A stretch of 56,658 nt of DNA from Dehalococcoides sp. JdFR-56 (GTDB lineage Bacteria > Chloroflexota > Dehalococcoidia > Dehalococcoidales > RBG-16-60-22). Under the pieces are notes generated by a model, which was not told the DNA's origin, searched no databases, and worked only from the letters and a program-made list of their open reading frames with translations. The DNA lies in NCBI GenBank assembly GCA_002011495.1, contig MTNR01000001.1:1-56658 (forward strand), in the 5' to 3' direction. Below, piece by piece: positions 5,732-41,211 of the stretch (position 1 is the stretch's first letter; the number at the start of each line of letters is the position of its first letter). The translations under genes and the position numbers were made by a program.

Positions 5732-7369
<1,638 letters not shown>

Positions 7370-16270: not shown

Positions 16271-16323
16271 GCCAAGGCCTCTGGTAAGGGCGGCCAGGCG
16301 GCGCAAATCAGCTTGAAAGACTG

Positions 16324-16854
16324 GTGAAAACGATGCTGGGAAACAGGTTAAAGCGCTATCCTGACAGGCTGGGGGAGTGGTGCTCCCGTGTGTCCACCGT
16401 GCTCACTGCGCTACTCCTGGTCTTCATGGCGCTGCTGATAACGGTAGATGTCATCGGGCGAGGCGTATTCTCCAAGCCGACCCTCATCGCTGATGCCGCG
16501 TCAGGGTACGCGCTGGTTGGCATCGTTTTCCTGGGCCTGGCGGTCAGCGAGTGGTCAGGGAAACACGTTACGGTGCAAATCCTAACCCGACGGCTGCCTC
16601 CACACCGGCGCGAGCAGGTGGAGGCAGCCGTCCTGATTATCACCTTGGCCTTCGCCATTTGGTTTCTCTGGATCCTGTTTGGCGTGGTCAAGGTGAATTA
16701 TGTCAACCAGACTGTTTCCATCGATGCCCTGCACATCCGCATGTGGATACCATATTCCGTCGGCCCCATTGGCACCGGTATTTTCGCCCTGGTGCTACTG
16801 GCTAAAGTGATTCAGAAAATAAGAGGCCTGGTGAGTGCTAGAGAAGTCAAATAA
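16324..16854 (+). CDS. dctQ: TRAP transporter small permease
   Basis: Four hydrophobic segments, DVIGR, H-V-x-V motif; lies between dctP and dctM. Confidence 0.85.
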   Translation: MKTMLGNRLKRYPDRLGEWCSRVSTVLTALLLVFMALLITVDVIGRGVFSKPTLIADAASGYALVGIVFLGLAVSEWSGKHVTVQILTRRLPPHRREQVEAAVLIITLAFAIWFLWILFGVVKVNYVNQTVSIDALHIRMWIPYSVGPIGTGIFALVLLAKVIQKIRGLVSAREVK

Positions 16855-16921
16855 GCATGGGATACCGCCCGGGCTCTAAATTATATGCGTTAGGTCAATT
16901 GTTTGGCAGGGAGGTCAGTAA

Positions 16922-18223: not shown

Positions 18224-18276
18224 TTTTTGGCCACTAGTAGCAGGAGCTTAAAAGATGAGCTGAGGGAGGAAAATAA

Positions 18277-19362: not shown

Positions 19363-19387
19363 GCAGTGGGAAAGGAGTAGAGCCAAA

Positions 19388-20386
19388 ATGGCAAAAGTGA
19401 AAGCGGTGCAGTACGGATGCGGCCCAATTGGATGCGGCGTCACTAGATACGCGGCGCAGAAGGCAGATATTGAGATTGTGGGGGCCATTGACGTGGCCCA
19501 GGAACTGGTGGGGCGTGACCTCGGCGAGGTGGCCGGCCTTGACCGCAAGCTCGGGGTGACCATCTCCGCCGAGGCTGAAGCGGTACTAGCCCAAACCAGA
19601 CCAGACATCGTTTTTCTCACCACCGCCTCGGCCCTGAAGGCCACTCGCCCGCAGCTGGAGACCTGTCTCAAGGCGGGCATCAATGTGGTATCCACCTGTG
19701 AAGAGCTGGCCTACCCCTACTGGAGGGAGCCTGAACTTGCCGCGGAAATAGGTGCCCTGGCAAAGCGCAGCCAGGTGACCGTCCTCGCCACCGGAGTCAA
19801 CCCGGGATTCCTCATGGATACCTGGCCCCTGTTCATGACCGGCGTCTGCCAGGAGGTCAAGAAAATCAGGGCGGTCAGAATCCAGAATGCCTCCAGCCGC
19901 CGGGGGCCATTCCAGAAGAAGATAGGGGCTGGCTGCACCCTGGCTGAATTCCAGGAGAGGGTGGCCGCGGGCACGCTGCGCCATGTTGGCCTGGCAGAAT
20001 CGATCGCCATGATTGCCGCCGGTCTGGGCTGGAGGCTGGATGACATCACCGAGACCATTGAGCCGGTGGTGGCCAAAGCCCCGGTCAAGACCGATTTCGT
20101 CACCGTTTCCCCGGGGCAGGCCTCCGGGGTAAAACAGATTGCCAGGGGCTTGATGGGGGGAGAGGAAGTGATCACCCTGGAATTTGTCGCCTCGGTTGAT
20201 GCCCCGCAATCCTACGACGCGGTCTATATCAGCGGCCGGCCTGATCTAGAGGTCGTAATCCAGGGCGGGACCCATGGCGATGTGGCCACCGCGGCTGTCG
20301 TGGTCAACGCCGTGCCCCGGGTCCTCGCCGCGCCACCAGGCCTAGTTACCATGAAGGACCTGCCCATCGTTATCGCCCAGGGGTAA
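19388..20386 (+). CDS. NAD(P)-dependent amine dehydrogenase / 2,4-diaminopentanoate dehydrogenase (Ord)-like
   Basis: VQYGCGPIG Rossmann motif, NVVSTCEELAYP, TGVNPGFLMD, GHVG-like RHVG, GDVATAA. Confidence 0.78.
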   Translation: MAKVKAVQYGCGPIGCGVTRYAAQKADIEIVGAIDVAQELVGRDLGEVAGLDRKLGVTISAEAEAVLAQTRPDIVFLTTASALKATRPQLETCLKAGINVVSTCEELAYPYWREPELAAEIGALAKRSQVTVLATGVNPGFLMDTWPLFMTGVCQEVKKIRAVRIQNASSRRGPFQKKIGAGCTLAEFQERVAAGTLRHVGLAESIAMIAAGLGWRLDDITETIEPVVAKAPVKTDFVTVSPGQASGVKQIARGLMGGEEVITLEFVASVDAPQSYDAVYISGRPDLEVVIQGGTHGDVATAAVVVNAVPRVLAAPPGLVTMKDLPIVIAQG

Positions 20387-20433
20387 ATGGCTTGGTCGCT
20401 TGCTAAAAATAAAGAAATGGAGGAAAGAGGAAA

Positions 20434-21777
20434 ATGGCTTCAGCAAACATCGCCGAGCAATACAAACAGGCCCGCCCAGGCTCGCTAAAGCTGCACGAGC
20501 GGGCGGAGCGGCTGTTTCCGGCAGACGGGGCAACCCACGGCGCCCGTGTTCTTGACCCCTTCCGGCCCTACATCACGCACGCCAAGGGGTCAAAGAAATG
20601 GGATGTTGACGGTAATGAGTACATTGACTACGGGATGGGACACGGCGCCCTCATACTGGGACACGGCCATCCGGCGATAGTCCAGGCGATACAGGAGCAG
20701 ACGGCGAAAGGCCTGCATTACAGTGAGAACCAGCCCCTGGAAGTTGAATGGGGAGAGCTCATCAGCCAGATGATGCCTGTGGCCGAGCGGATTGAGGTGT
20801 GCGCCTCCGGGCAGGAAGGCAACCTGATGGCTATCCGGATAGCGCGGACCTTCACCGGAAGAAAGAAAATCATCCGCTTTGAGGAGAACTTCCATGGCTG
20901 GGCGGGTGAGGTGGCACCAGAGGGCTCCGCCGGGGTCACCATGCCGGAGGTCACCTTCCTCCCCATGAATGATATCGCCGTCGTGGAGAAGGAGCTGGCT
21001 AGCAGGGAATACGCCCTGGTCATGATTGAGGGCGGCGGCGCCCACATGGCCGGGCAGATACCCTGGGAATATGACTTCATCCGCGAGCTTCCCCTAGTCA
21101 CCAAGAAGTACGGGACGCTTCTCCTCATTGATGAGGTGGTCACCGGCTTCCGCGAGTCCCGTGGTGGCTGGCAGGAACTGGTGGGGGTCAAGCCTGATTT
21201 AACCACGCTGGGCAAATGTGTCGGTGGGGGTATCCCGGTGGGGGCGGTGGTGGGCCGGGCTGATGTCATGGAGGTGCTGGACCCCAAACGCCCAGCGGAG
21301 AAGCGCATCAGGCACACCGGGACCTGGAACGCCAATCCGATTCAGTGCGCCGCCGGCATTGCCGCCTGCAAGCTGTACTTGAACGGTGAGCCGCAGAAGA
21401 AAGCGGCTGAGATCGGCGCTTATCTCCGCGAGCAGGGAAATAAAATGCTCAAAGAGAAAAAGATAAGCGGGCGTCTCTATGGCCGCACCATCATCCACCT
21501 CTACCTTGGGCCAATAGAATATGAGCCCTCTGACCCCGCCTTCCCGCCGACAAGGAGCCTGGCGCAGATCATTAATCCGGCCATGATTCCGATAAAGAAT
21601 GAGCTGTGTCTGCGGCTGCTGGAGCGCGGGATAGCCACCATGGGGGCTAGGTTCTTCGTCATGTCAGCGGCGCACACCAGAGAGGATGTTGACCGGACGG
21701 TGGCGGCGCTAGCTTCATCACTGGATGAGATGATGGCCACCGGAGCGCTCAAGGAGAGCTTGGCCGGGGTTAAGTAA
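20434..21777 (+). CDS. Class III PLP-dependent aminotransferase (GSA-aminomutase-like fold)
   Basis: WDVDGNEYID, FHGW, LIDEVVTGFR, TLGK(PLP Lys)CVGGG, HTGTWNANP. Confidence 0.88.
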   Translation: MASANIAEQYKQARPGSLKLHERAERLFPADGATHGARVLDPFRPYITHAKGSKKWDVDGNEYIDYGMGHGALILGHGHPAIVQAIQEQTAKGLHYSENQPLEVEWGELISQMMPVAERIEVCASGQEGNLMAIRIARTFTGRKKIIRFEENFHGWAGEVAPEGSAGVTMPEVTFLPMNDIAVVEKELASREYALVMIEGGGAHMAGQIPWEYDFIRELPLVTKKYGTLLLIDEVVTGFRESRGGWQELVGVKPDLTTLGKCVGGGIPVGAVVGRADVMEVLDPKRPAEKRIRHTGTWNANPIQCAAGIAACKLYLNGEPQKKAAEIGAYLREQGNKMLKEKKISGRLYGRTIIHLYLGPIEYEPSDPAFPPTRSLAQIINPAMIPIKNELCLRLLERGIATMGARFFVMSAAHTREDVDRTVAALASSLDEMMATGALKESLAGVK

Positions 21778-26402: not shown

Positions 26403-26978
26403 TTAATCGGCGCAGTCCAGGATGAACCCGGTCTCGTCACAGCAGAAATACTTGGGACAGCGGATGCATTCGCCCCACACCTTGGAGGGGAGCTCCTCCT
26501 TCCGCTTGGGTTTAAAACCAAGCTTCTCAAAAATCCCTCCCATTGTGGAGAAGGCGAACACCTTCTTGATCCCGACCTTGCGGCCCTCTCCCACCAAATA
26601 TCGGACGATCTGCGATGCCAAGCCACGGTGCTGAAACTGGGGATGGGTGGCCAGCGAACGAATCTCAGCGATATCCTCCCAGAGCACGTGAAGGCTTCCG
26701 CAGGCCACAATCCTTGGCGGCGCCCTCCCCACATCCGCCTCCACCACCACAAAATCCCTTATGTTCTCATAGAGGTATTCTGGCCCCCTCGGCAGCATCA
26801 GGTTGGAGCTGGCGTAACTATTGACCAGCGCCAGAATCTCCTCCACATCGGAAACGCGGGCCCGCCTTAAAGTCAAGCCACCCGAGTGAAGTCCCTTCAA
26901 GTCCTCCTCCCCAAAACCAGCCTCCAGCTGGTATCTTCGCTCTGCATACTTGTGGTGCAAGCAAACATCCTCCGGCAA
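26403..26978 (-). CDS. GNAT N-acetyltransferase, short-ArgA (amino-acid acetyltransferase)-like
   Basis: LRRARVSDV, MLPR...LYENIRDF, WEDIAEIRSLA, LPSKVWGECIRCPK...CDE. N-terminal extension; start uncertain (TTG). Confidence 0.8.
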   Translation of the reverse strand: MPEDVCLHHKYAERRYQLEAGFGEEDLKGLHSGGLTLRRARVSDVEEILALVNSYASSNLMLPRGPEYLYENIRDFVVVEADVGRAPPRIVACGSLHVLWEDIAEIRSLATHPQFQHRGLASQIVRYLVGEGRKVGIKKVFAFSTMGGIFEKLGFKPKRKEELPSKVWGECIRCPKYFCCDETGFILDCAD

Positions 26979-27123: not shown

Positions 27124-27897
27124 GTGAAGGATGAGATAGAAGGCGTCATCTTTGATCTGGACGGGGTGCTTGAGTTCCAGGGGAAAGCCTATCCTGGAGC
27201 CATCGAGCTCCTCAATCTACTACGCAGCCGAGGGATTCCCATCCGGGTCCTCTCCAACAGCACCCTAAAAAGCAGGCGCTCATGTGCCGAGAAGCTGAAG
27301 AGCAAGGGCTTCAACATCCAGGAGCATGAGGTGGTCACCGCTTCCTTCGCCACGGCTCGATATCTGGAGACCCTTAATCCCAGGTCTTGTTGGGTGATGC
27401 TCAAGAGGGAGGGGCTGGAGGAATTTAGCGGTTTTCGGCATGATCCGGATGACCCCGAATATATCGTTCTCGGGGATTTTCGCGAGGACTTCAATTTTCA
27501 GAACTTAAACAAAGCGCTCCGGCTCCTGTGCAAGGGCGCCAAACTGATCGTCATGATCACAGAAACCGTGGACAGCAGCCTGGGGGAGATGGAGCTGACG
27601 GTGGGGGCATACGGGAAAATGCTCGAGGATGCCGCCGGCATCAAGGCCACCTACATCGGCAAGCCGAACCGTTATATCTTCGATATCACCCTGGATACCA
27701 TGGGGAACATCGAGAGAAGCCGAATCCTCATGGTGGGAGATAGGCTGGCCACCGACATCCTGGGGGCAAAGAACGCTGGCCTCAAGACAGCGCTGGTAAA
27801 GACCGGAGAGTTCCGGGAAAGCGACCTGGAGTCCCCGGTCGCCCTCCCGGACTATATCTTTGACTCGGTCGGCGAGGTCGCCAAACTCTTTCGCTGA
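27124..27897 (+). CDS. HAD-IIA (NagD-like) hydrolase
   Basis: FDLDGV, LSNST, IGKPN, MVGDRLATDILGA, VKTG; GTG start after AAGGAG. Confidence 0.9.
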   Translation: MKDEIEGVIFDLDGVLEFQGKAYPGAIELLNLLRSRGIPIRVLSNSTLKSRRSCAEKLKSKGFNIQEHEVVTASFATARYLETLNPRSCWVMLKREGLEEFSGFRHDPDDPEYIVLGDFREDFNFQNLNKALRLLCKGAKLIVMITETVDSSLGEMELTVGAYGKMLEDAAGIKATYIGKPNRYIFDITLDTMGNIERSRILMVGDRLATDILGAKNAGLKTALVKTGEFRESDLESPVALPDYIFDSVGEVAKLFR

Positions 27898-27936: not shown

Positions 27937-28938
27937 CTACTGACCTAGCGTTGCCACCATCACCGCCTTGATGGAGTGACAGCGGTTCTCCGCCTGGTCA
28001 AAGACGATTGATGCCTCCGATTCAAAAACATCCTCGGTGACTTCCATGCTCTCCAGGCCGAACTTCTGATAGACCTGCTCGCCGATGGTCGTCTCCCGAT
28101 TGTGGAAGGCGGGCAGGCAGTGCATAAACTTCACCTCAGGGTTACCGGTCATCTCCAGCACCTTTTGGTTCACCTGATACGGCTTAAGTAATTCGATTCT
28201 CTCCTTCCAGACGTCCTCCCCCTCACCCATGGATACCCAGACATCCGTGTAAAGAAAATCGCAATCCTTCACCCCCTCCGCCACGTTGTCCGTTATCTTG
28301 ATGCGGGCGCCGGTTTGCCTGGCGATCTCCTCCGCCTTCTGCACCAGCTCCCGCTGTGGCTGCAAGCTCTTGGGCGCCACGGAGCGGAAATCCATGCCCA
28401 TCTTGGCCATGCCGATAAGCAAGGAGTTACCCATGTTGAACCGCGCGTCTCCCAGATAGGCAACCTTCACCTCGCTCAATGGCTTGGGGGTATGCTCCAT
28501 TATGGTAAAAATGTCAGCAAGCACCTGGGTAGGGTGGAACTCGTTGGTAAGACCATTCCAAACAGGGACATTGGAATACTCGGCAAGGGCCTCCACGATC
28601 TCCTGGCCAAAGCCGCGGTAGCCAATCCCATCATACATCCTGCCCAGCACGCGGGCGGTATCCTTCATAGACTCCTTCTTCCCCAGCTGGGAAGCTGATG
28701 GGTCAAGGTAGGTTACCTTCGCTCCCTGGTCATAGGCGGCGGTTTCAAAAGCACACCTGGTTCTGGTGGAGGGCTTCTCAAAAACCAAGACAATGTTTTT
28801 ACCTACCATTCTCGGCTGCTCAGTGCCGGCATACTTCGCCCGCTTGAGCTCTGCAGTGAGGTCAAGCAAAAAGCGTATCTCCCCGGGGGAGAAGTCCAGC
28901 AGCTTCAAAAAGCTTCTGTTTCTGAGATTATAAGCCAT
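27937..28938 (-). CDS. arcB: Ornithine carbamoyltransferase (ArcB/ArgF, probably catabolic)
   Basis: [18 protein letters not shown] (SMG ornithine loop, unlike putrescine transcarbamylase), HCLP; clustered with carbamate kinase. Confidence 0.93.
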
Positions 28939-29047
28939 CTTGCACCTCCTGATTTTTTAGTTTTGATTTGCTTTTTCCAGCCGAAAATCAAGACAGCGAT
29001 TTTTACTTCAGCCCCTCGCCTGGGCATTTCCGGGAAATTAAAGCTTT

Positions 29048-29077
29048 ATTATCGCCACAAGCCAAAGCAAATGTCAA
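29048..29077 (-). promoter_or_regulatory. Candidate sigma70 promoter for the OTC gene
   Basis: Minus strand TTGACA-18 nt-GATAAT. Confidence 0.55.
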
Positions 29078-29184: not shown

Positions 29185-29214
29185 TTGACAAAGGCCAAAA
29201 GTGCATTTTAAAAT
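29185..29214 (+). promoter_or_regulatory. Candidate sigma70 promoter for the arcE-amidinotransferase-SSS-arcC operon
   Basis: TTGACA-18 nt-TAAAAT, about 360 nt upstream of the first ATG. Confidence 0.6.
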
Positions 29215-29578: not shown

Positions 29579-30943
29579 ATGAAGAAGAAAAATATTCTCA
29601 TTATCGGCTCCGCAGGAAGAGACTTTCATAACTTCAACATGTACTTCAAGGACAATGAAGAGTACAATGTGGTGGGCTTCACCGCCTCACACCAGGTCCC
29701 CGGTATTGTGGGGCGAAAATATCCTCCCGAGCTGGCCGGCAAGCTCTATCCGGAAGGAATCCCCATCTATGCGGAGGAGGAACTTGCCCAGCTGATAAAG
29801 GAGCTCAACGTTGATATCTGCGTCTTTTCCTACAGTGATGTTTCCTACCAACACGTGATGGGCATCGGGGCCATCGTAAATGCCGCCGGGGCCAACTACA
29901 TGATGCTCGGCCCCAAGGACACCATGCTCAAAAGCAAGAAACCGGTCATCGCGGTGGGCGCGGTGAGAACCGGCTCCGGCAAGAGCCAGACCTCAAGAAG
30001 GGTCATTGAGATCCTGATGGCGAAGGGATTGAAAGTGGTCGCGGTACGCCACCCCATGCCCTATGGCGACCTAGCTGCTCAGAGGGTGCAGCGCTTCGCC
30101 GAGCTAGCTGACCTCCAGAAGCACAACTGCACCGTGGAAGAGATGGAGGAGTATGAGCCACACATCGTGCGCGGCAATGTTATCTACGCCGGGGTAGACT
30201 ACCCGGCCATCCTAAAGGCGGTGGAGGAAGACCCCAGGGGCTGCGATGTCATCGTCTGGGATGGTGGCAACAACGACTTCCCCTTCTTCAAGCCCGACCT
30301 GATGATAACCGTTACCGACCCTCACCGCCCAGGCCATGAGCTCTCCTACTATCCCGGGGAAATCAATCTACGCATCGCCGATGTCGTGGTCATCAACAAG
30401 ATTGACAGCGCCTATCCGGAGAACATTCAGAAGGTGCGGGAGAGCATCGCCAGGGTGAACCCCAGAGCCACCGTGGTTGATGCCGCCTCTCCGATCAAGG
30501 TTGATGACCCGCAGATAATCAAGGGGAAGAAGGTGCTGGTCATCGAGGACGGCCCCACGCTGACGCACGGGGAGATGACCTACGGTGCGGGCACAGTTGC
30601 CGCGCAGCGGTACGGGGCAAGCGAGTTGGTAGACCCCAGGCCCTACACCGTGGGGAGCATCACCGAGACGTTCCAGCTCTACCCCTACATCGGCAAACTC
30701 CTGCCGGCGATGGGCTATGGCGAGCAGCAGCGCAAAGACCTGGAGGTGACCATCAACCGGACCGAATGTGACGCGGTGGTGGTGGCAACCCCCATTGACC
30801 TAAGCCGGGTGGTGGACATCAAGAAGCCGAATACCCGGGTTTACTATGAGCTTCAGGAGATCGGGACACCAAACCTGGACGAGATACTGTCCGAGTTCGG
30901 GAAGGCGCATAATCTTCCTATGAAGAGTGCCAAAGGGGCATGA
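29579..30943 (+). CDS. arcE: Arginine synthetase (ArcE)-like P-loop protein, often auto-annotated as cyclic 2,3-diphosphoglycerate synthase/GTPase
   Basis: GSAGRDFHNFN, YPPELAG.LYP.GIPI, AVRTGSGKSQTSR, RHPMPYGDL, WDGGNND, EDGPTLTHG, LPAMGYG match my recollection of Thermococcus kodakarensis ArcE; flanked by OTC and carbamate kinase. Confidence 0.85.
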   Translation: MKKKNILIIGSAGRDFHNFNMYFKDNEEYNVVGFTASHQVPGIVGRKYPPELAGKLYPEGIPIYAEEELAQLIKELNVDICVFSYSDVSYQHVMGIGAIVNAAGANYMMLGPKDTMLKSKKPVIAVGAVRTGSGKSQTSRRVIEILMAKGLKVVAVRHPMPYGDLAAQRVQRFAELADLQKHNCTVEEMEEYEPHIVRGNVIYAGVDYPAILKAVEEDPRGCDVIVWDGGNNDFPFFKPDLMITVTDPHRPGHELSYYPGEINLRIADVVVINKIDSAYPENIQKVRESIARVNPRATVVDAASPIKVDDPQIIKGKKVLVIEDGPTLTHGEMTYGAGTVAAQRYGASELVDPRPYTVGSITETFQLYPYIGKLLPAMGYGEQQRKDLEVTINRTECDAVVVATPIDLSRVVDIKKPNTRVYYELQEIGTPNLDEILSEFGKAHNLPMKSAKGA

Positions 30944-31153: not shown

Positions 31154-32341
31154 ATGGCAAAGATTGTGAATTCCTGGAACGAGTGGGACCCCCTAAAACA
31201 CGTGATCATCGGCAGACCAGAGGGCACAAACGTTCCCGCTCCAGAGCCAGCCTGGTGGTATGATCTGCCGGAAGGCGAGTACCCACTGCCGACGTATGGT
31301 CCTTTCCCACAGGAGATGGTGGATGCGGCCAATGAGCAGATGGATTACTTCGTCTCGGTGCTGGAGAAGCGGGGGGTCAAGGTGGACCGGGCGATAATCC
31401 ATCCCTGTATGTACAACAAACCGGTCTCCACACCGGACTGGACGCAGCTGAACTGCCATGGCGTCAACAACGTTCGGGACGTGTTCCTGGTTCACGGCAA
31501 GTATATCATTGAGGCCACCACCTGCCGCCGCTCCCGATGGTACGAGTATCTGAACCTGCGCCCGCACTTTGAGCGGTTCTTCAAAGAGGACCCGGAGATG
31601 GTGTGGTTCACCGCCCCCAAGCCGCGATTGACAGACGAGTCCTACGTCAAGAATTACTACTACTACTTCAACAACGTCTGGACTGATGAGGAGAAGCGGG
31701 ACCGGCTGTACAACTGGGAGTTCCAGCTGACCGAGAAGGAGCCCCTCTGGGATGCTGCCGATGCCATGCGCTTCGGCAAGGATATTTTCCACCAGGGGTC
31801 GTGCGTGACCAACAAGAGCGGCATGGACTGGCTGAAGCGCATGTTCGCCGAGCTCGGCATCCGGGTGCACCACGTCCTGTTTGACACCCCATGGCCTCCA
31901 TCGCCGGACCGACCGGATAACTACCATCCCTGGCACATTGACGTGAACCTGGTTCCGTTGCGACCGGGGCTGTGCATGTACAACCCAGACTGGAAGCCAC
32001 GCACCCCGGAGCTGTGGGAACTGTTCAAGATAAATGACTGGGAGCTGATTCCCGCTGCCAGGCCGACCTACGTGCACAAGAACAAGGTCTACCTCACCGG
32101 GCTGTATGAGGGCAAGTCATGGATCTCGATGAACACCTTCTCCATTGACCCGAAGACGGTCTGTGTGGAGGCGCACGAGACGGCATACTGCGAGCAGCTG
32201 GACAAGCTTGGCTTCGAGGTAATCCCCATCCCCTACGAGAAGGTGATCCCGTTTGGCGGTGCTCTGCACTGCACCACGCTGGACATCTACCGAGAGGGCA
32301 AACTGGAGGATTACTTCCCGAAGCAGATCCCGGGCTACTAA
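31154..32341 (+). CDS. Amidinotransferase (AGAT/StrB1 family), acceptor/donor specificity unknown
   Basis: VNSWNEWDPL, RD, WDAAD (catalytic Asp), HID (catalytic His), WISMN, GGALHC (catalytic Cys). Confidence 0.9.
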   Translation: MAKIVNSWNEWDPLKHVIIGRPEGTNVPAPEPAWWYDLPEGEYPLPTYGPFPQEMVDAANEQMDYFVSVLEKRGVKVDRAIIHPCMYNKPVSTPDWTQLNCHGVNNVRDVFLVHGKYIIEATTCRRSRWYEYLNLRPHFERFFKEDPEMVWFTAPKPRLTDESYVKNYYYYFNNVWTDEEKRDRLYNWEFQLTEKEPLWDAADAMRFGKDIFHQGSCVTNKSGMDWLKRMFAELGIRVHHVLFDTPWPPSPDRPDNYHPWHIDVNLVPLRPGLCMYNPDWKPRTPELWELFKINDWELIPAARPTYVHKNKVYLTGLYEGKSWISMNTFSIDPKTVCVEAHETAYCEQLDKLGFEVIPIPYEKVIPFGGALHCTTLDIYREGKLEDYFPKQIPGY

Positions 32342-32437: not shown

Positions 32438-33961
32438 ATGAACGGTTATCAGATCGGTTTGATCTCCCTTGTAGCGTTGTATGTCCTGGTCGGTGTGGCC
32501 ATGTTCTACCTGGTTCAGCGGAGCGGCCGGCGCTTCATCATCGCCGGTAAGCGGCTGCCTTTATTCCTGATAGGCACCATGCTCTTCGCCCAGGCGCTGG
32601 ACGCCAACGCCACGCTGGGAAATGCCGGAGGCGTGTATGCCGGTGGGTTTTGGGCTGGATTCCAGTTTCCGCTGGGGCTAGCCCTGTGTCTTGTTGTCGT
32701 CGCGATATGGTACGCCAAGCCCCTGAACCGGATGAACCTGATCACGCTGGCCGATTTCTACTTCCGGAGGTATGGCCGCAAGGTAGAAGTCCCCGTGGGA
32801 CTGCTCATGTGTTTCAGCTTCGTCATCCTGGTCGCGGGCAACTTGGCCGGTGCCTCCTGGATAATCCACATGGTCTTCGGCTTTGACTACCTCCCGTCGC
32901 TGATCATAATGAGTATCCTTCTCCTTGCCTACACCTTCAGCGGCGGGCTTTTCTCCTGCGCAGCCACAGACATAGTGCAGCTATACCCCGCTCTGCTAGC
33001 CTTCGTTGGAGGCGCTATCTGGCTATTCTTCAGCTACGGTGGCGGCGATTGGGGCTACTTTGCTGCGGCAATCCCAGCTGGCTACGCTGACCTTAGCGGC
33101 CTATACTCCATAGAAAACGGGGCACTTCTGAACTGGGCGGGTATCCTGGCGCTCGGCATTGGTGACGTGGTTGCCCTTGACTTCATGGAAAGAGTCTTTG
33201 CCGCTAAAGACCCGGAAACTGCCCGCAGGGGCTGCTTGTGGGGCGCTGGGTTCACCCTGATACTGGGGCTGGCAGCTTCATTCATTGGTCTGATGGCCTT
33301 CCAGCTCTTTGGGGACATCGATGACCCCAGGTCAGTCATAGTGCTGGCGGCGACCTCCATGCCGTTGGTCGTCGGGCTATTCGTCATGGCTGGTGTCATC
33401 GGTGCCGGGCTATCCACTGCCAATGGTGGCGCACTGGCTGTAGCCGCGGTGCTGGGCAGGAATATGCTGCACCGGAACATTGTCCTGCCCATGCACAGAA
33501 GAAAGGCCAGAAAGCTGGGAGTGAGCGTTGAAGACTTGGGGATTGACTGGCGTGTTCTGGACCGCAGGCTTCTCTGGTGGGCCCGCCTCATGCTAATACC
33601 AGTGATGGCAGCGTCAGTTTACCTGGCCTACGTCAAACCTGAGCCAGGCATCATGCTGGTTCTCGCCTTTGACGTGGTCTTCGCCGGGTGTCTGGTGCCT
33701 CTGACGCTGGGCATCTACTGGAAAAAGGCAAACGCGTATGGGGCGCTGGCATCAGTCGTCATCGGGTCTTTGCTCCGATTATACTTGTTCTTGACCATCC
33801 CGGAGCATTTAGCCGGTTTGGATACACTAATTCCGCCGGTTGTCTCCCTCCTGGTGATGGTGCCAGTGAGCTTGCTAACGCAGAAACAAGACCCGCCAAA
33901 GCATGAGGTGATCTTCGAAACTCCCAGCGAGGAAGAGGTGGCCCGAGCCATACGCTACTAA
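32438..33961 (+). CDS. Sodium:solute symporter (SSS family)
   Basis: FIIAGKRLPL, TLADFYFRRYG, YTFSGGL...TDIVQ, ERVFAAK, AGLSTANG, GIYWKKAN; about 13 TM segments. Confidence 0.92.
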   Translation: MNGYQIGLISLVALYVLVGVAMFYLVQRSGRRFIIAGKRLPLFLIGTMLFAQALDANATLGNAGGVYAGGFWAGFQFPLGLALCLVVVAIWYAKPLNRMNLITLADFYFRRYGRKVEVPVGLLMCFSFVILVAGNLAGASWIIHMVFGFDYLPSLIIMSILLLAYTFSGGLFSCAATDIVQLYPALLAFVGGAIWLFFSYGGGDWGYFAAAIPAGYADLSGLYSIENGALLNWAGILALGIGDVVALDFMERVFAAKDPETARRGCLWGAGFTLILGLAASFIGLMAFQLFGDIDDPRSVIVLAATSMPLVVGLFVMAGVIGAGLSTANGGALAVAAVLGRNMLHRNIVLPMHRRKARKLGVSVEDLGIDWRVLDRRLLWWARLMLIPVMAASVYLAYVKPEPGIMLVLAFDVVFAGCLVPLTLGIYWKKANAYGALASVVIGSLLRLYLFLTIPEHLAGLDTLIPPVVSLLVMVPVSLLTQKQDPPKHEVIFETPSEEEVARAIRY

Positions 33962-34039: not shown

Positions 34040-35011
34040 ATGGAGAGAAACAGAAGCAAAACCTTTGTCATTGCCCTTGGTGGTAACTCCATCCTGAGAG
34101 CAAAGCAGAAAGGAAGTGCCGAAGAGCAGTATGAGAATATAGAGCGCACCGCGGAACAGCTACTGGATTTGCTCAGCAGCGGGAACCGCATCGTAATCAC
34201 CCACGGCAATGGACCACAGGTTGGCAATCTGCTCCTCGCCTGCGAGGCTGCCAAAGATATCGTGCCCCCTCTGCCCCTGGACATCTGCGGCGCAGCCACG
34301 GAGGGCTTCATGGGCTACATGATTCAGAATACCCTGGCCAACCAGCTGCGGCGGATAGGGGCCCCACACAATATCACCACCGTGGTAACCCAGGTGATCG
34401 TGGACCGCAATGACCCCGCCTTCAAGCACCCCTCCAAACCAATAGGCCCCTTCTACAGCGCCGAGGAGGCAGAGCAGCTGCGAAGAGAGAAAGGGTGGGA
34501 GATCATTGAAGACAGCGCCCGTGGTTACCGGCGGGTGGTGCCCTCACCAATACCGGTGAATATCCAGCAGGCCAGAATCATCAAGAGCATGCTAGATAGC
34601 GGCGAGATAGTGATCGCCGTCGGTGGCGGTGGCATCCCGGTGGTGAGGGAGGCTAACCGCGACCTGCGCGGCGTTGAAGCGGTGATTGACAAGGACTACG
34701 CCTCAGCCCGCCTGGCCATCGAGATAGATGCTGACGTCCTGTTTATTCTCACCGCGGTGGAGTATGCCTATCGAGACTTCGCCACACCTCAGCAGAAGGC
34801 GCTGGAGGAGCTGAGCCTGGCAGAAGCCAAGAAACTTCTGGAGGAAGGCCACTTCGGCAAGGGAAGCATGGAGCCCAAGATCCGGGCCGCCATAATGTTC
34901 CTGGAGGAAACAAGCCCAGACCCATCGCGGGAACGGGAGGTGATCATAACCCTCCCTGAGACGGCGATGAAGGCGCTCGAGGGCAAGACCGGCACCAGGA
35001 TTATCAGATAG
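34040..35011 (+). CDS. arcC: Carbamate kinase
   Basis: IALGGNS, THGNGPQVG, KPIGPFY, RRVVPSP, GGGGIPV, AVIDKD, GSMEPK. Confidence 0.97.
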   Translation: MERNRSKTFVIALGGNSILRAKQKGSAEEQYENIERTAEQLLDLLSSGNRIVITHGNGPQVGNLLLACEAAKDIVPPLPLDICGAATEGFMGYMIQNTLANQLRRIGAPHNITTVVTQVIVDRNDPAFKHPSKPIGPFYSAEEAEQLRREKGWEIIEDSARGYRRVVPSPIPVNIQQARIIKSMLDSGEIVIAVGGGGIPVVREANRDLRGVEAVIDKDYASARLAIEIDADVLFILTAVEYAYRDFATPQQKALEELSLAEAKKLLEEGHFGKGSMEPKIRAAIMFLEETSPDPSREREVIITLPETAMKALEGKTGTRIIR

Positions 35012-35166: not shown

Positions 35167-35209
35167 TTGACAAATGGCGTTAGCCGGTTTATAATTGCAA
35201 CTGGTTGCA
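35167..35209 (+). promoter_or_regulatory. Consensus sigma70 promoter plus palindromic operator for the fur-nik operon
   Basis: TTGACA(35167)-17 nt-TATAAT(35190), immediately followed by TGCAAC-TG-GTTGCA (35196-35209). Confidence 0.85.
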
Positions 35210-35215
35210 CCAACA

Positions 35216-35629
35216 ATGAGTTGCACTACTACGCTAAAGAACAAAGGGCTGAAACTCACCCCACAGCGAAGGCTTATTCTAAACATCATCCACGAGTCCG
35301 GCGGCCACCTCACCGCTGAAGAAATCCTTGACTACGTCCATGCCCGGGTGCCCGGGGTAAATAAATCAACCGTCTACCGTACCCTGGAGCTTCTCGAGGA
35401 GCTGGGTTGCGTGTACAAGAGCGAGCTCGGGGATAGATTCATCTACCACCACGCTGAGGAGGGGCACCACCATCATCTGGTGTGCCGCGCCTGCGGCAAG
35501 AGCATTGACTGCGATGAGGACGTCTTTCTCCCGGTGGAGAGAGCACTCGATAAGAAATATGGCTTTCAAGCCCACTTCAAGCACATGGTGATGAGCGGCC
35601 TCTGCGCCGAGTGCCGGGACAAAGGCTAG
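35216..35629 (+). CDS. Fur-family metalloregulator (possibly nickel-responsive)
   Basis: LKLTPQR, HLTAEEI, STVYRTL, HHHHLVCRACG, GLCAEC. Confidence 0.92.
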   Translation: MSCTTTLKNKGLKLTPQRRLILNIIHESGGHLTAEEILDYVHARVPGVNKSTVYRTLELLEELGCVYKSELGDRFIYHHAEEGHHHHLVCRACGKSIDCDEDVFLPVERALDKKYGFQAHFKHMVMSGLCAECRDKG

Positions 35630-35739
35630 TAACTTTAAAAAATTTTTAAAGAGCCAGGCAATTGGTTTAGCCGCGGTCATGATGTCTATCCCCCGTTCGG
35701 TAAAAACCATCGCCTGGAATGGAAAAGGAGGGATGAGCT

Positions 35740-36378
35740 ATGCATATCCCCGATGGCTTTCTGAACATGGCCACTGTGGCGAGCACCTACACCATATCGG
35801 TGGGTGGGGTGGCCAACGCGGTGAGGATAGCCAATAAGAAACTGGGGGAAAAGCAGGTGCCCATGATGGGAGTTTTGGCCGCCTTCATCTTTGCTGCCCA
35901 GATGCTCAATTTCCCGGTAGCCGGGGGCACCTCCGGGCACCTCATCGGCGCGGCGCTGGCAGCTATTTTGCTCGGGCCATGGGCAGCGGTGATCATAATG
36001 AGTGCGGTGCTCATCGCCCAGAGCCTCATCTTTCAGGATGGCGGCCTCCTCGCCCTGGGAGCCAATATCTTCAATATGGCCATCATCGCCAGCTTCAGCG
36101 CCTATTATATCTACCGCCTAGCCCAGTCACTCCTTGGCGATAGCGGCAAGGGGCAGCTCATCGGCGTTTTCGCGGCTAGCTGGGGCTCGGTGTTACTTGC
36201 CTCCATCGCCTGTGCCGTGGAGCTGGCCATCTCAGGGGCGTCACCCTGGGGGGTGGTTCTGCCCGCCATGGCTGGCGTCCACGCCCTTATTGGTATCGGT
36301 GAAGGGCTTATCACCTCAGCCGTGGTCAGCCTGGTGCTGGCCACCAGAGCTGACCTCATGCGCCTGCAAAAAATCTAG
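35740..36378 (+). CDS. nikM: Ni/Co ECF transporter S component (NikM/CbiM)
   Basis: Metal-binding N-terminus MHIPDGFL (NikM-type), GTSGH, DGGLLALGAN. Confidence 0.88.
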   Translation: MHIPDGFLNMATVASTYTISVGGVANAVRIANKKLGEKQVPMMGVLAAFIFAAQMLNFPVAGGTSGHLIGAALAAILLGPWAAVIIMSAVLIAQSLIFQDGGLLALGANIFNMAIIASFSAYYIYRLAQSLLGDSGKGQLIGVFAASWGSVLLASIACAVELAISGASPWGVVLPAMAGVHALIGIGEGLITSAVVSLVLATRADLMRLQKI

Positions 36379-36396
36379 CCGTTTGGGAGGACACAG

Positions 36397-36690
36397 ATGA
36401 GCAAGAAATGGTGGATAATCGCGCTAGTTATCTCTCTGGCGCTGGCCACCATATCGCCCTTGGCCTCGTCAGCGCCCGATGGGCTGGAAAGGGTGGCCGA
36501 GGATAATGGCTTCCTTAGCCTGGCATTGGAAGCGCCATTTGAGATTGTGGCTGATTACGTCTTTCCGGGGATAGCCAATGAGGCGCTGGCCACCATAATC
36601 GCCGGCTGGCTGGGCACCATCCTTTTGTTTATCGCCGTATACGGTCTTGCTTGGTTAATCAAATCAAGAAGAAGGACAACTACTGTCTAG
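36397..36690 (+). CDS. nikN: PDGLE-domain protein (NikN-like)
   Basis: ASSAPDGLERVA motif between two TM helices. Confidence 0.85.
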   Translation: MSKKWWIIALVISLALATISPLASSAPDGLERVAEDNGFLSLALEAPFEIVADYVFPGIANEALATIIAGWLGTILLFIAVYGLAWLIKSRRRTTTV

Positions 36691-36719
36691 TCAGATACCA
36701 AGTCCCATAGGTGTAATGA

Positions 36720-37493
36720 ATGAGGCACAGTTTCCTCGACCAGTATAGCGACCGGGATAGCCTGATACACCGGCTTGACCCCCGCACCAAGCTGGTGAGC
36801 ACCTTTCTCTTCATAACCGCGGTGGCGCTGACGCCACCTGACGGATGGGTGTCTTACGCCCTGTACTCGGCCATCTTGGCCATCTGGCTAATGCTATCCC
36901 GTGTGCCCCTCGGCTACGTTCTCAAGCGCTCCCTGGTGGTCCTCCCCTTCGTGGTGCTGATCGCCATATTCATCCCCTTTTTCCGGGAGGGAGAAATAGC
37001 CGGTAGCTACAATCTGTGGCTGTGGCAAGTGTCAGTTACCCACAGCGGGATTATCATCCTGCGCAATATCCTGATTCGGGCCTGGCTCTCCGTCCTCAGC
37101 CTGATTCTGCTCACCTCAACCACCAAGCTGCCTGACCTTCTGAGGGGGCTGGAGCAACTGCACATGCCCCGGGTAATGGTCATGGTGCTCTCCTTCATGT
37201 ATCGGTATATCTTTGTGCTGGTGGATGAAGTGATGCGGATGAAGCAGGCCAGGGACAGCCGCAACTTCGGTGGCCGGCGCTGGTGGCAGATACGGACGGT
37301 GGGCAATATGATCGGCACCCTCTTCATCCGTGCCTATGAGCGCGGGGAAAGGGTTTACGCCGCCATGATGGCCAGAGGCTTTGACGGCCAAAGCCGGACG
37401 CTGAAGCGCCTGGAATTCAAGCCGGCGGATGCCTACTTTGGGCTGAGCCTCGGGACGCTGGTCATCTGGGGCAACCTCATCAACCTAATTTAG
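36720..37493 (+). CDS. nikQ: Ni/Co ECF transporter T component
   Basis: IHRLDPRTK, MYRYIF, AMMARGF. Confidence 0.88.
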   Translation: MRHSFLDQYSDRDSLIHRLDPRTKLVSTFLFITAVALTPPDGWVSYALYSAILAIWLMLSRVPLGYVLKRSLVVLPFVVLIAIFIPFFREGEIAGSYNLWLWQVSVTHSGIIILRNILIRAWLSVLSLILLTSTTKLPDLLRGLEQLHMPRVMVMVLSFMYRYIFVLVDEVMRMKQARDSRNFGGRRWWQIRTVGNMIGTLFIRAYERGERVYAAMMARGFDGQSRTLKRLEFKPADAYFGLSLGTLVIWGNLINLI

Positions 37494-37509
37494 CTAGCCA
37501 AACAAGATT

Positions 37510-38232
37510 ATGGACGACGCCATCAGAATAGAAAAACTCTCCTTCAGCTACCCCGATGGCCACCAGGCCCTTGCCGGGGTCAGCCTGGTCATTGGCCGGG
37601 GGGAATCAGTGGGCATCGCCGGCCCCAACGGGGCGGGGAAGTCCACCCTGCTGCTTCACCTAAACGGCATACTGCGCTCAGATGATGGGGCGGTCAAGGT
37701 CTTGGGGCAGCCCGTGGATGATAAGAACCTGAGGTGGATAAGAAGCAAGGTGGGGCTGGTATTCCAAGACCCGGATGACCAGCTATTCTCGCCGACCGTT
37801 TTTGATGATGTCGCCTTTGGCCCCATCAACATGGGCTATACCGCATCTGAGGTCAAAGAGGCAGTAGCCAGGGCTCTGGACTGGGTTGGCATGAAGGGCT
37901 GTGAGGAGCGCTCTTGCCACCACCTCAGCTTTGGTGAGAAGAAGCGGGTTTCCCTGGCCACCGTCCTGGCCATGGACCCCGAGATACTGGTGCTGGATGA
38001 GCCTACCAGCAACCTTGACCCCGCCGGCAAGTGGGCCCTGATCAGCCTGCTCAAAAAACTGGCCGTGACCAAGATAGTCGCCACCCATGACCTTGAGATG
38101 ATGCAGGCTCTCTGCCAGCGCATCGTCCTCCTGGACCAGGGGCAGGTGGTGGCTGAAGGCCCTGCGGAGAAGATTCTGGCGGATAAGGATTTGCTCGCTG
38201 CCCACGGGCTGCTCTCCGCCGAGCCAGTCTAA
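37510..38232 (+). CDS. nikO: Ni/Co ECF transporter ATPase
   Basis: GPNGAGKST, FQDPDDQLF, LSFGEKKR, LDEPT. Confidence 0.9.
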   Translation: MDDAIRIEKLSFSYPDGHQALAGVSLVIGRGESVGIAGPNGAGKSTLLLHLNGILRSDDGAVKVLGQPVDDKNLRWIRSKVGLVFQDPDDQLFSPTVFDDVAFGPINMGYTASEVKEAVARALDWVGMKGCEERSCHHLSFGEKKRVSLATVLAMDPEILVLDEPTSNLDPAGKWALISLLKKLAVTKIVATHDLEMMQALCQRIVLLDQGQVVAEGPAEKILADKDLLAAHGLLSAEPV

Positions 38233-38414
38233 CCAACCCCTAGCTAGACCCCTTCACCACAAAAGATACCTCACTTCCTCTCTTCATTTGATTTCCTCCG
38301 CAGCGAGAACCGCTCCAAGGTCGCCTGCGCTTTTGCAGAAATGGTATAATTAAGCGCAAAGCAAAGGCCGCTCTCAAGTAAGCCAAACTGTTTATTATTT
38401 TGGAGGTGATTTGG

Positions 38415-39266
38415 GTGAAGAGGTCAGCTCATCTGGCAGAAGGCGCTGATAGCACGCTTTCGGCAAAACTGGAGGCCTTAAAGGGCCTGCTTTCTGAGAT
38501 GGGGAGCGTGCTCATCGCCTATTCTGGCGGGATGGACAGCACCTTTCTGCTCAAAATAGCCTCCAGCGTGCTCGGAGACAAGGTGATGGCGGTAACCGCC
38601 AGCTCAGAAACCTACCCCTCAAGGGAGATGGAGGAAGCCAAGCGTAATGCCCAGATGCTTGGGGTAAGACACCTGGTCATCCATACCTGCGAGCTGGAGG
38701 ATGCCAACTTCACCTCCAACCCCCCGGAGAGATGTTATTACTGCAAGAAAGAGCTGTTCTCCAAGCTGGTGGAACTGGCCCGGCAATATGACCTAAACTA
38801 TGTGGCTGATGGCTCAAACTATGATGACTTGAACGATTTTCGCCCAGGGATGAAGGCAGCCGCCCAGTTTGGCGTGAGGAGCCCGTTAAAGGAGGCCAAG
38901 CTCACCAAAGAGGATATCAGAAGGCTCTCCCGGGAGATGAATCTGCCCACTTGGGATAAACCACCCCAGCCTTGTCTCTCAAGCCGGTTTCCCTACGGCG
39001 CCCCCATCACCAAGGAGAAGCTCTCCCGGGTTGAGCTCGCCGAGGAGTTTTTGATGAGCTTCGGCATCAGGCAGCTGAGGGTGAGAGACCATGGTGACAT
39101 CGCCAGAATAGAGGTTCCCAGGGAGGACATGCCCCTGCTTCTCGATGAGAAAGCGGCCAGGAAAATCGTGGAGCGGTTCAAGGCCCTGGGCTACAACTAC
39201 ATCACGCTGGATATCCAGGGCTACCGCATGGGCAGCATGAACGAGCCACTAAAGAGGGGGAGTTAG
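38415..39266 (+). CDS. larE: Nickel-pincer cofactor sulfur insertase LarE
   Basis: PP-loop SGGMDS, RCYYCK, DFRPG, PCLSSRFPYG. GTG start after GGAGGTGA; extended -10 TGGTATAAT at 38342-38350. Confidence 0.93.
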   Translation: MKRSAHLAEGADSTLSAKLEALKGLLSEMGSVLIAYSGGMDSTFLLKIASSVLGDKVMAVTASSETYPSREMEEAKRNAQMLGVRHLVIHTCELEDANFTSNPPERCYYCKKELFSKLVELARQYDLNYVADGSNYDDLNDFRPGMKAAAQFGVRSPLKEAKLTKEDIRRLSREMNLPTWDKPPQPCLSSRFPYGAPITKEKLSRVELAEEFLMSFGIRQLRVRDHGDIARIEVPREDMPLLLDEKAARKIVERFKALGYNYITLDIQGYRMGSMNEPLKRGS

Positions 39267-39268
39267 CC

Positions 39269-40027
39269 TTGGACAGGGAGAAGATAACCGAGCTTCTGGA
39301 AAAGGTGAGAGAGGGGAAAATCGAGGTCACCGAGGCATTAGGCATGCTGAAATCCCTCCCCTACGAGGATCTTGGCTTTGCCAAGATAGATACCCACCGG
39401 GATCTAAGGAAAGGCTTCCCTGAAGTGATTCTGTGCCGGGGGAAAACCCCGGAGCAGGTGGCCAAAATCATGGAGAGGCTGGCTATGGGCAACAAGTTCG
39501 TCATGGCCACCAAAGCAAGCCAGGACGTTTATCAGGCGGTGAAAAAGGTAAGGCCAGATGCCGTCTACCATGAAATGGCGAAGATAGTAGTCGTCGGCAG
39601 GAAAGAGCGGGAGATGGCGACCAGAACCATCCTGGTGGTCAGCGCCGGAACCGCTGACCTGCCCATCGCCGAAGAGGCCGCGGTCACCGCCGAGGCCATG
39701 GGCAACGCGGTGGAGCGGCTCTATGACGTCGGTGTGGCCGGAGTCCACCGCTTCTTTGACCACAAAGAGAAGCTGTTTGGGGCCAATGTCATCATCGTTG
39801 TCGCTGGGATGGAAGGAGCCCTAGCCAGCATCGTGGGCGGGCTGGTGGATAGACCGGTGATCGCCGTCCCCACCAGCGCCGGCTATGGGGCCAGCTTTGA
39901 GGGGCTGGCGGCGCTGCTGACCATGCTCAACTGCTGCGCACCGGGCGTGGTGGTGGTGAACATAGATAACGGCTTTGGGGCCGGATACTTTGCCAGCATC
40001 ATCAACCAGATGGGCGCGGAGAGATGA
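39269..40027 (+). CDS. larB: Nickel-pincer cofactor carboxylase/hydrolase LarB
   Basis: DLGFAKID.HR, AGTADLP.AEEA, DVGVAG.HR, AGMEGAL, PTSAGYG, VNIDNGFGA. Confidence 0.95.
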   Translation: MDREKITELLEKVREGKIEVTEALGMLKSLPYEDLGFAKIDTHRDLRKGFPEVILCRGKTPEQVAKIMERLAMGNKFVMATKASQDVYQAVKKVRPDAVYHEMAKIVVVGRKEREMATRTILVVSAGTADLPIAEEAAVTAEAMGNAVERLYDVGVAGVHRFFDHKEKLFGANVIIVVAGMEGALASIVGGLVDRPVIAVPTSAGYGASFEGLAALLTMLNCCAPGVVVVNIDNGFGAGYFASIINQMGAER

Positions 40028-41211
40028 AGATAGCCTACTTTGACTGCTTTTCCGGCGTCAGCGGCGATATGATTTTGGGCGCCCTGATTGATGCCGGGCT
40101 GGAACTGCGGGAGCTTGAAGCGGAACTAGATAAACTGAAGCTCTCCGGATACAAGCTCAGCGCGGAGAAAGTAATAAGAGCGGGTATCTCTGGCACCAAG
40201 TTCAGCATGGAGATAACTGAGCAGAGCGGGGAGAGGAGATTAAAGGATATCACCCAACTCATTGACCAGAGCAGCCTGGACAGCGATATCAAAACCTTAG
40301 GCAAGAGGGTATTCCAGGAGCTGGCCACGGTTGAGGCGGAAATCCACGGCAAAGACGCTGCCGAAATACACTTCCATGAAGCCGGGGGGCTTGATTCCAT
40401 CATAGACGTGATTGGTTCCCTGGTCGCCATAAAGAAGCTCGGCATTGAGGCAGTTTACGTATCCAAGATTCACCTCGGCACCGGCTTTGTTCAGTGCCGG
40501 CACGGGATGCTTCCCGTCCCAGCCCCGGCCACATTGGCTCTGCTCAAAGGGGTACCAATCCGCTCCCAAGGTATAGAGGCGGAGCTGGCTACCCCAACTG
40601 GCGTCTCGCTCCTCAGGACCCTAGCCCGGAGCTTTGGCACTATGCCGGAGATGCGGCTGGAGAAGGTGGGCTACGGCGCCGGGAGCCGGGAGCTGGAGAT
40701 ACCAAACCTATTGAGAGTGTACATTGGCGAAGCCGACGAGGGAGAATATGAACGGGACGAGGTTATCCTCATGGAAACGAACCTGGACGACACCAGCCCA
40801 GAGCTGCTGGCCCACGCCTCGGAAGTGCTCCTGAAACAAGGGGCGCTTGACGTCTTCATGACGCCCATCTTCATGAAGAAGAACCGTCCCGGAACCATGC
40901 TCAGCGTTCTGACGACGCCGGATAAGCTTGATATGCTCCTTGCTACCATCTTCAACGAGATAGCCACCCTAGGCGTCCGCCTGCACCATCTGGAAAGGAG
41001 AAAACTCTCCCGCGAAGTCATCTCCGTAGAGACCAGATTCGGGGAGATAAAGGTGAAGATAGGTAGACTGGAGAACAAGGTCAAAGCCATCTCCCCCGAA
41101 TACGAGAGCTGCCGGGAAATCGCGCTGAAATTGGGAATCCCCCTAAAAGAGGTCTACGACGAAGCCAAAGAGATGGCTAGAAAAGCGCTATCCGGGGAAA
41201 AGAGTACCTAA
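40024..41211 (+). CDS. larC: Nickel-pincer cofactor nickel insertase LarC (single ORF)
   Basis: YFDCFSGVSGDM, IHFHE, PVPAPAT, TPTG, ETNLDD, MKKNRPG, PEYES. Confidence 0.93.
   Translation: MKIAYFDCFSGVSGDMILGALIDAGLELRELEAELDKLKLSGYKLSAEKVIRAGISGTKFSMEITEQSGERRLKDITQLIDQSSLDSDIKTLGKRVFQELATVEAEIHGKDAAEIHFHEAGGLDSIIDVIGSLVAIKKLGIEAVYVSKIHLGTGFVQCRHGMLPVPAPATLALLKGVPIRSQGIEAELATPTGVSLLRTLARSFGTMPEMRLEKVGYGAGSRELEIPNLLRVYIGEADEGEYERDEVILMETNLDDTSPELLAHASEVLLKQGALDVFMTPIFMKKNRPGTMLSVLTTPDKLDMLLATIFNEIATLGVRLHHLERRKLSREVISVETRFGEIKVKIGRLENKVKAISPEYESCREIALKLGIPLKEVYDEAKEMARKALSGEKST

Follow-up and report, generated by a model that had tools for sequence, protein, structure and literature searches.

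A predicted amidinotransferase-containing variant of the arginine synthetase pathway in a Dehalococcoidia genome

Results

Gene content of the locus

The window, i.e. the whole stretch of 56,658 nucleotides that was analysed, encodes a homologue of arginine synthetase (ArcE) together with the following genes and promoters.

26403..26978, minus strand: ArgA-like GNAT N-acetyltransferase (PRK07757, 162.6 bits, cut-off 154)
27124..27897, plus strand: HAD-IIA phosphatase, LHPP/HDHD2-like (homologues 66-88% identical in loci L009, L013, L028 and L132)
27937..28938, minus strand: ornithine carbamoyltransferase (OTC) gene arcB, divergent from arcE (TIGR00658 and PRK04284 over cut-off)
29048..29077, minus strand: sigma70-like promoter before the OTC gene, 11/12 (promoter scan)
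29185..29214, plus strand: sigma70-like promoter before arcE, 11/12, leader of about 360 nt (7 sites against 3.9 +/- 1.7 in shuffles)
29579..30943, plus strand: arcE, arginine synthetase homologue, 454 aa, ATG start (similarity, conserved columns, tree)
31154..32341, plus strand: amidinotransferase with the AGAT/SxtG/HsvA fold, 395 aa (PDB matches, alignment, model)
32438..33961, plus strand: SSS-family Na+:solute symporter, 507 aa (PF00474)
34040..35011, plus strand: carbamate kinase (CK) gene arcC (TIGR00746, 404.5 bits, cut-off 358.25)

The gene order is thus arcE, amidinotransferase, SSS symporter and CK, with the OTC gene divergent. The initial annotation had named OTC and CK as neighbours of arcE, and both indeed pass their cut-offs (TIGR00658, TIGR00746); the two middle genes were absent from it. 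The OTC protein carries the ornithine-type motifs DxxxSMG and HCLP and reaches 288 bits with the putrescine carbamoyltransferase model (cut-off 500), so that judged by its sequence it is of the ornithine and not of the putrescine type.

The two sigma70-like sites (11/12 each) point outward from the gap between arcE and the OTC gene. An Rfam search of the arcE leader returned nothing of note and no riboswitch. In three runs, which come from three studies and bear the labels subsurface or marine metagenome, the locus is covered by DNA contigs (30/30 bins in X2 and in X3, 28/30 in X4). One X3 contig swaps 81 nt of the OTC-side intergenic region (28950-29032) for 37 other letters, which is strain variation near the OTC promoter.

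The HAD-IIA phosphatase and the ArgA-like GNAT travel with the cluster in related loci. Homologues of the latter are 59-73% identical in L007, L009, L010 and L013 and weaker in L082 and L132; a second copy lies elsewhere in the window's genome (G000). The true start of this gene is probably downstream of the listed TTG. Directly after CK (35195-41211) follow a gene for a Fur-like regulator, whose promoter scores 12/12, genes for Co/Ni uptake of the CbiM type and nickel-pincer genes which we take to be larE/larB/larC-like; Fur and CbiM were not seen in the related loci in which they were looked for. A separate operon (15200-21777) encodes a TRAP transporter, an amidohydrolase, a 2,4-diaminopentanoate-dehydrogenase-like protein (below the Ord cut-off) and a class-III aminotransferase. 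Since its Ord-like and amidohydrolase genes are without a match in the 79 amidinotransferase loci described below, this operon was rejected as a part of the cluster and set apart from it.

Identification of the ArcE protein

The five motifs from which the initial annotation recognised ArcE are all present, at residues 13, 128, 157, 227 and 323, and none of them was found in two true cyclic 2,3-diphosphoglycerate synthetases (cDPGS). Four of the five are identical in the Thermococcus ORF L097, and the fifth differs by one residue (TGSGKS versus TGCGKS). L097 is bounded by both published TK2200 primer sites and shares 277 of 441 residues (63%) with the window protein, which is 61.7-63.0% identical to the three of nine Thermococcus ORFs with both primer sites exact. 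By their sequences these ORFs appear to be TK2200 or near-identical orthologues. A scan with the TK2200 reverse primer found five Thermococcales loci, a scan of the genome contigs with the forward primer gave no match. The window protein carries a Walker-A-like GxGKS; TK2200 was described with a predicted P-loop NTPase core (PMC11032458).

The window protein keeps 121 of the 123 alignment columns that are conserved across 25 further ArcE sequences (family-conserved positions and not defined catalytic residues), and the two misses are V/I and K/R exchanges. The cDPGS controls, which come from the same genus as the TK2200 relatives, keep 28 of the 123. One of these controls, L092, matches the solved cDPGS 9SXB (E 2e-187) and adjoins a 2-phosphoglycerate kinase gene. 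A quick IQ-TREE analysis of 40 sequences, in which four of 24 class loci were omitted because a stop left fewer than 380 aa, places the window in a clade of 22 sequences that includes five from Thermococcus (SH-aLRT 96). The arcE copies without an amidinotransferase nest within the same clade. The alignment and the tree that had been proposed as a check against cDPG synthetases thus group the window protein with ArcE and not with cDPGS.

Pfam and NCBIfam gave no match to the ORF at 1e-5, and no model in these collections names ArcE or an amidinotransferase of the window type. Names were available for 16 of the 120 homologues listed: twelve are called 'GTPase', two 'cyclic 2,3-diphosphoglycerate synthase', two hypothetical and none 'arginine synthetase'. 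The suspicion that ArcE is hidden under a cDPG synthase/GTPase label therefore holds for 14 of the 16 named homologues among the matches listed. If these labels were taken at face value, the ORF would be a cDPGS or a GTPase, and a weak PDB match to cDPGS (residues 222-326, E 6e-7) points the same way. However, the true cDPGS controls align with only a part of the window protein, at 24-25% identity, keep few of the ArcE columns and are separated from it by about 10 substitutions per site in the 40-sequence tree, which makes this explanation extremely improbable.

With 63% identity to L097, 121 of 123 columns and its placement in the tree, the assignment to the ArcE family stands, and we are highly confident that the initial identification was right; arginine synthetase activity is likely on these grounds. 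The proposed Dehalococcoidia origin agrees with the names of the nearest homologues, several of which are from Dehalococcoidia or Chloroflexota. ArcE has already been listed for Chloroflexi (PMC11032458), and therefore ArcE by itself adds a member to a known family. The amidinotransferase and the SSS gene suggest that the earlier reading was incomplete: because these two sit in the cluster, the imported substrate is perhaps not arginine itself.

The amidinotransferase

The protein encoded by 31154-32341 matches SxtG, HsvA, AGAT and StrB1 in the PDB (E 1.5e-54 to 6e-38). R108, D109, D200, H261, D263 and C373 are invariant in an alignment of 23 sequences. The best fold match of the model (pLDDT 81.6) is AGAT (4JDW, E 7e-33, TM 0.80), while hydrolases and deiminases match far more weakly (E 7e-11 or weaker). 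To AGAT (1JDW/4JDW), SxtG, HsvA, StrB1, AmtA and CyrA the protein is alike in fold (TM 0.74-0.80) and in the invariant Cys, His and Asp residues, at about 30% identity. According to alignment and model it is a protein of AGAT-family fold with a Cys-His-Asp catalytic set, and the catalytic residues presumably act as in human AGAT. The corresponding roles in SxtG are given in PMC12371840.

The flap reads N-Y-H258-P-W260-H. His258 and Trp260 take the positions of Asn300 and Met302 in AGAT (flap definition from PMC4887976), so that H-P-W replaces N-P-M; the Trp aligns with the Arg of the NPDR motif of AGAT. For that reason 'glycine amidinotransferase' is not a safe label, and it was rejected as a statement of specificity. 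The Trp at the Met302 position was also dropped as a marker of the donor, since one creatininase-linked clade shares it. In contrast to the named enzymes, which make products, the amidinotransferase of the window stands in a catabolic gene context. Tandem paralogues with differing flap and loop residues occur in L036 (four copies), L010, L012 and L025, and some of them carry a remnant of the arcE 3' end. The differing flaps suggest a range of donors.

The SSS importer and its relatives

In a plasmid collection seven records match the SSS protein at 36-38% identity with shared motifs; the next full-length matches are at most 26% identical. The genomic context was examined for five of the seven, the other two being further Haloarcula records. 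Two of the five are under a guanidine-I riboswitch and two beside a close guanidine-hydrolase homologue (one copy has both); the remaining two, from haloarchaea, have a related ureohydrolase gene nearby. In Rubrobacter a guanidine-I riboswitch precedes first the ureohydrolase and then the SSS gene, after which come a formamidase on the other strand and urease. This ureohydrolase matches 9FEK (E 2e-160) and 7ESR/7OI1 (2e-150), which we take to be guanidine hydrolases (entry titles 'agmatinase 2'). In Acaryochloris the SSS gene begins about 90 nt past the riboswitch, and in Nonomuraea it is divergent from a gene whose product is 63% identical to the Rubrobacter hydrolase. The haloarchaeal copies are near an 'agmatinase family' gene; the one examined fits 7ESR best, only modestly above guanidinobutyrase. 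In the reverse search of 301 genomes of the phylum the sole match of the Rubrobacter transporter at 1e-60 is the window gene.

This subfamily (Rubrobacter, L142 3521-6500; Acaryochloris, L145 5708-7422; Nonomuraea, L146 4780-7413) is, as far as similarity and gene context indicate, a candidate type of guanidine importer. An identity of 35-38% to guanidine-linked relatives does not fix the substrate of the window protein. Guanidine importers named in the accessible text of reviews are of the ABC and APC types (PMC12186494, PMC11410670). An APC permease that adjoins the amidinotransferase in L021 has one weak plasmid match (26%) and was set aside as uninformative. Scans of the window and of 25 related loci detected no guanidine riboswitch, and RF00442 was not found in five genomes.

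Conservation of the cluster

Among 401 genomes of the class arcE occurs in 28, of which 25 are without the amidinotransferase at the threshold used. Amidinotransferase and SSS are encoded in the same three genomes, and in all three the amidinotransferase lies directly behind arcE. The cluster is split across two contigs in G377, and in G061 arcE, amidinotransferase, SSS, CK and OTC are on a single strand. Close arcE copies that lack the amidinotransferase have ornithine-consuming genes as neighbours, namely an ornithine aminotransferase gene in G024 and a P5C-dehydrogenase-like gene two genes downstream in G340; in G240 only CK is alongside in the stretch examined.

A metagenome scan for the amidinotransferase confirmed 576 stretches and returned 79 loci, which include eight near-duplicate groups, so that kin are not independent. 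At an identity of at least 70% there are 26 loci, with arcE in 14 (three of them short internal remnants), OTC in 10, CK in 10 and SSS in 7. At least one of arcE, OTC and CK is present in 20 of the 26 (in two by an arcE remnant alone), in shuffled gene orders. If only the loci with at least 1.5 kb on both flanks are counted, 7 of 10 hold one of the three genes, one by a remnant. The long loci L017, L024 and L031 have a close amidinotransferase and none of these genes. The association fades with distance, to 1 of 11 loci at 53-70% identity and 8 of 42 below 53%.

Creatininase is encoded in 6 of the 79 loci, directly behind the amidinotransferase in five, and the two examined pass TIGR04448; GABA transaminase is encoded in 5 of the 79. 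Neither occurs in the 25-member clade of the window in a 72-sequence amidinotransferase tree, from which sequences shorter than 330 aa or with a stop were omitted. These more distant clades with creatininase and GABA transaminase support a catabolic role. In L054 (939-3304) amidinotransferase, a true creatininase and arcE form a gene run, a hint that creatine feeds ArcE in another clade. MttB-type methyltransferases flank two members of the window's clade. MttB-family and corrinoid proteins are encoded upstream of close amidinotransferases in L010 (579-2051) and L014 (822-5398), and removal of methyl groups from creatine or methylguanidine is a possible role for them.

In L013 and L028 the cluster is found together with arginine-biosynthesis-type genes. 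ArgJ, an amino-acid kinase and a class-III aminotransferase adjoin it in L013. The arcE leaders of two unrelated loci, L013 (about 6460-6575) and L016 (about 1280-1400, the same as L132/L005), have three short motifs in common, and just before the ribosome binding site each closes with a terminator-like hairpin and a T run. This leader is possibly an orphan riboswitch or attenuator. It has no Rfam match, it was not found in the window's own leader, and its pattern matches 3 of 301 genomes of the phylum, probably by chance.

Genome context

The initial annotation had proposed to search the rest of the genome for arcA and argG/argH. In the window's genome, which is 92.75% complete, arcA (PF02274) gave no match, while argG, argH and carbamoyl phosphate synthetase (CPS) all score above their cut-offs. 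ArcE has been argued to be catabolic in genomes with argGH (PMC11032458). As arcA was not detected and CPS and argGH are present, the ArcE of the window is therefore probably catabolic. The intact argG is on contig C3; a second copy beside argH (C15, 13901-14431) has an internal deletion, in which model positions of about 125-335 are missing.

Neither an ArcD-type antiporter or ornithine-disposal gene nor a recognisable enzyme for the disposal of an amine product was found in the window cluster. The genome encodes the glycine cleavage P and T proteins, which could remove the glycine from guanidinoacetate. A single query for an MttB homologue found none in the genome. A creatininase-family gene located elsewhere was rejected as a creatininase (117 bits, cut-off 235).

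Discussion

A predicted ATP-forming cycle

We propose that the arcE-amidinotransferase-SSS-CK cluster and OTC together form an ATP-yielding cycle for guanidino compounds in which ornithine is recycled, and we give this reading a probability of about 0.6. Because the amidinotransferase and SSS genes lie between arcE and CK, ornithine would serve as a carrier that is regenerated, rather than being the end product. The SSS protein would import a small guanidino compound with Na+. The amidinotransferase, running opposite to the usual biosynthetic direction, would then transfer the amidino group via Cys373 onto ornithine, yielding arginine and the freed amine. This direction presupposes a reversible enzyme, as was shown for its relative AmtA (PMC4887976). 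ArcE would, by homology, convert arginine, ADP and Pi to citrulline, NH3 and ATP, a reaction demonstrated for TK2200 (PMC11032458). OTC would split citrulline with Pi into ornithine and carbamoyl phosphate, from which CK would form ATP, CO2 and NH3 with a further ADP. Each amidino group would give a net 2 ATP, ornithine would be restored, and the ArcE-OTC-CK part would release CO2 and 2 NH3.

The donor can be named only tentatively. Free guanidine leads the candidates, at odds still well short of even, because the nearest annotated relatives of the importer are found in guanidine-I riboswitch and guanidine hydrolase contexts. With this donor the end products would be CO2 and 3 NH3 only, plus 2 ATP, which would account for a cluster that does without an enzyme to handle an amine product. 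No literature on free guanidine as an amidino donor was found. Guanidinoacetate, creatine or methylguanidine are somewhat less likely, and other guanidino compounds are doubtful. With the ArcE step close to equilibrium (-6.8 kJ/mol, PMC11032458) and measured guanidine concentrations low (0.5 uM for a wastewater influent, PMC11410670), the cycle may have a marginal driving force.

Alternative explanations

The cluster may be nothing but the plain arginine synthetase pathway, in which ArcE, OTC and CK degrade imported arginine and the amidinotransferase, on a side branch, uses arginine to form a guanidino product. These three enzymes are enough in T. kodakarensis (PMC11032458), 25 of the 28 arcE-bearing genomes of the class do without an amidinotransferase, and the characterised amidinotransferases cited in the accessible text of PMC4887976 and PMC12371840 are biosynthetic. 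Yet the SSS gene follows the amidinotransferase (3/3) and not arcE (3/28), its nearest annotated relatives are guanidine-linked, and the cluster is without an ArcD-type antiporter or ornithine-disposal gene; we consider this the strongest of the alternatives, though an unlikely one. The cycle could also run in reverse, with CK, OTC and ArcE spending 2 ATP to recharge ornithine to arginine and the amidinotransferase making a guanidino osmolyte, nitrogen store or phosphagen precursor. Every step is reversible (PMC11032458, PMC4887976), and the accompanying ArgA-like GNAT and the arginine-biosynthesis-type genes of L013 and L028 also fit a biosynthetic direction. ArgJ, the amino-acid kinase and the class-III aminotransferase next to the cluster in L013 and the LHPP-like phosphatase conserved nearby speak for it as well. 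SSS proteins are as a rule importers, however, and the presence of one in the cluster argues against synthesis, as do the CPS and argGH already encoded in the genome and the degradative enzymes beside related amidinotransferase clades. Reverse operation is thus rather improbable, somewhat more so than the plain pathway.

An ornithine cycle would be unneeded if the amidinotransferase-like protein were a hydrolase, or if ArcE had come to act on some guanidino compound that is not arginine. The fold superfamily does include deiminases and dihydrolases, and the flap is unlike that of AGAT (His258 and Trp260 for Asn300 and Met302). Against a hydrolase, the closest matches in sequence and fold are amidinotransferases (E 7e-33), with hydrolases far behind (E 7e-11 or weaker); against a shifted ArcE, 121 of 123 conserved columns are kept, the copies without an amidinotransferase nest in the same clade, and TK2200 rejects guanidine and agmatine (PMC11032458). 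As OTC is moreover of the ornithine type, both versions have little to recommend them.

Comparison with known systems

The predicted cycle shares with the ArcE-ArcB-ArcC pathway of T. kodakarensis (PMC11032458, PMC13260591) an ArcE (63% identical over 441 aa), neighbouring OTC and CK genes, an arcA that was not detected and a yield of 2 ATP per amidino group, but differs from it by the amidinotransferase and the SSS importer between arcE and CK. The word 'amidinotransferase' was not found in the accessible main text of PMC13260591. To cDPGS (9SXB, 8ORK/8ORU) the window ArcE shows a distant homology with a single short matching stretch; it differs in its partial identity of about 24%, in five motifs missing from cDPGS and in having no 2-phosphoglycerate kinase neighbour in the window. 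With the routes that use GdmH and urease or guanidine carboxylase (PMC12186494, PMC11410670) the cluster has in common an importer whose nearest annotated relatives lie in guanidine-I riboswitch/GdmH operons. Those routes are hydrolytic or begin with a carboxylation, whereas the proposed one would conserve 2 ATP by substrate-level phosphorylation; unlike the known guanidine operons, the window is without a guanidine riboswitch and has an SSS protein in place of an ABC or APC importer.

No publication containing both 'arginine synthetase' and 'amidinotransferase' was found in a search that covered mainly journals outside subscription and, for PMC11032458, the text; the gene clusters of figure S2B and the trees of figures S10-S11 in that paper may include the present cluster. 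The cluster is probably a variant of the arginine synthetase pathway with an amidinotransferase and an importer, a combination not found in the literature searched.

Implications

Both genes appear to be systematically misannotated: homologues of arcE are entered under GTPase or cDPGS, and five homologues of the amidinotransferase bear the name 'serine/threonine protein kinase'. The bacterial routes for guanidine and its derivatives described in the accessible text of PMC12186494 and PMC11410670 free the amidino group as urea or ammonia, with no substrate-level ATP. If our reading is true and guanidine is the donor, anaerobes would have a third, energy-conserving route for free guanidine, in which ornithine serves as a catalytic carrier as in a urea cycle running backwards. 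That guanidine in particular is converted by the amidinotransferase and ArcE/OTC/CK to CO2, 3 NH3 and 2 ATP is possible, although we hold this narrower claim with much less confidence than the cycle itself. Through paralogous amidinotransferases, creatine, 4-guanidinobutyrate and further guanidino compounds would also enter this cycle, and a family so far known for biosynthesis would gain a catabolic role. The system consists of four soluble enzymes and one transporter and is open to a direct in vitro test. For energy-starved subsurface and marine anaerobes it would yield 2 ATP from each guanidino group and require no redox step, and it would be an overlooked anoxic source of ammonium.
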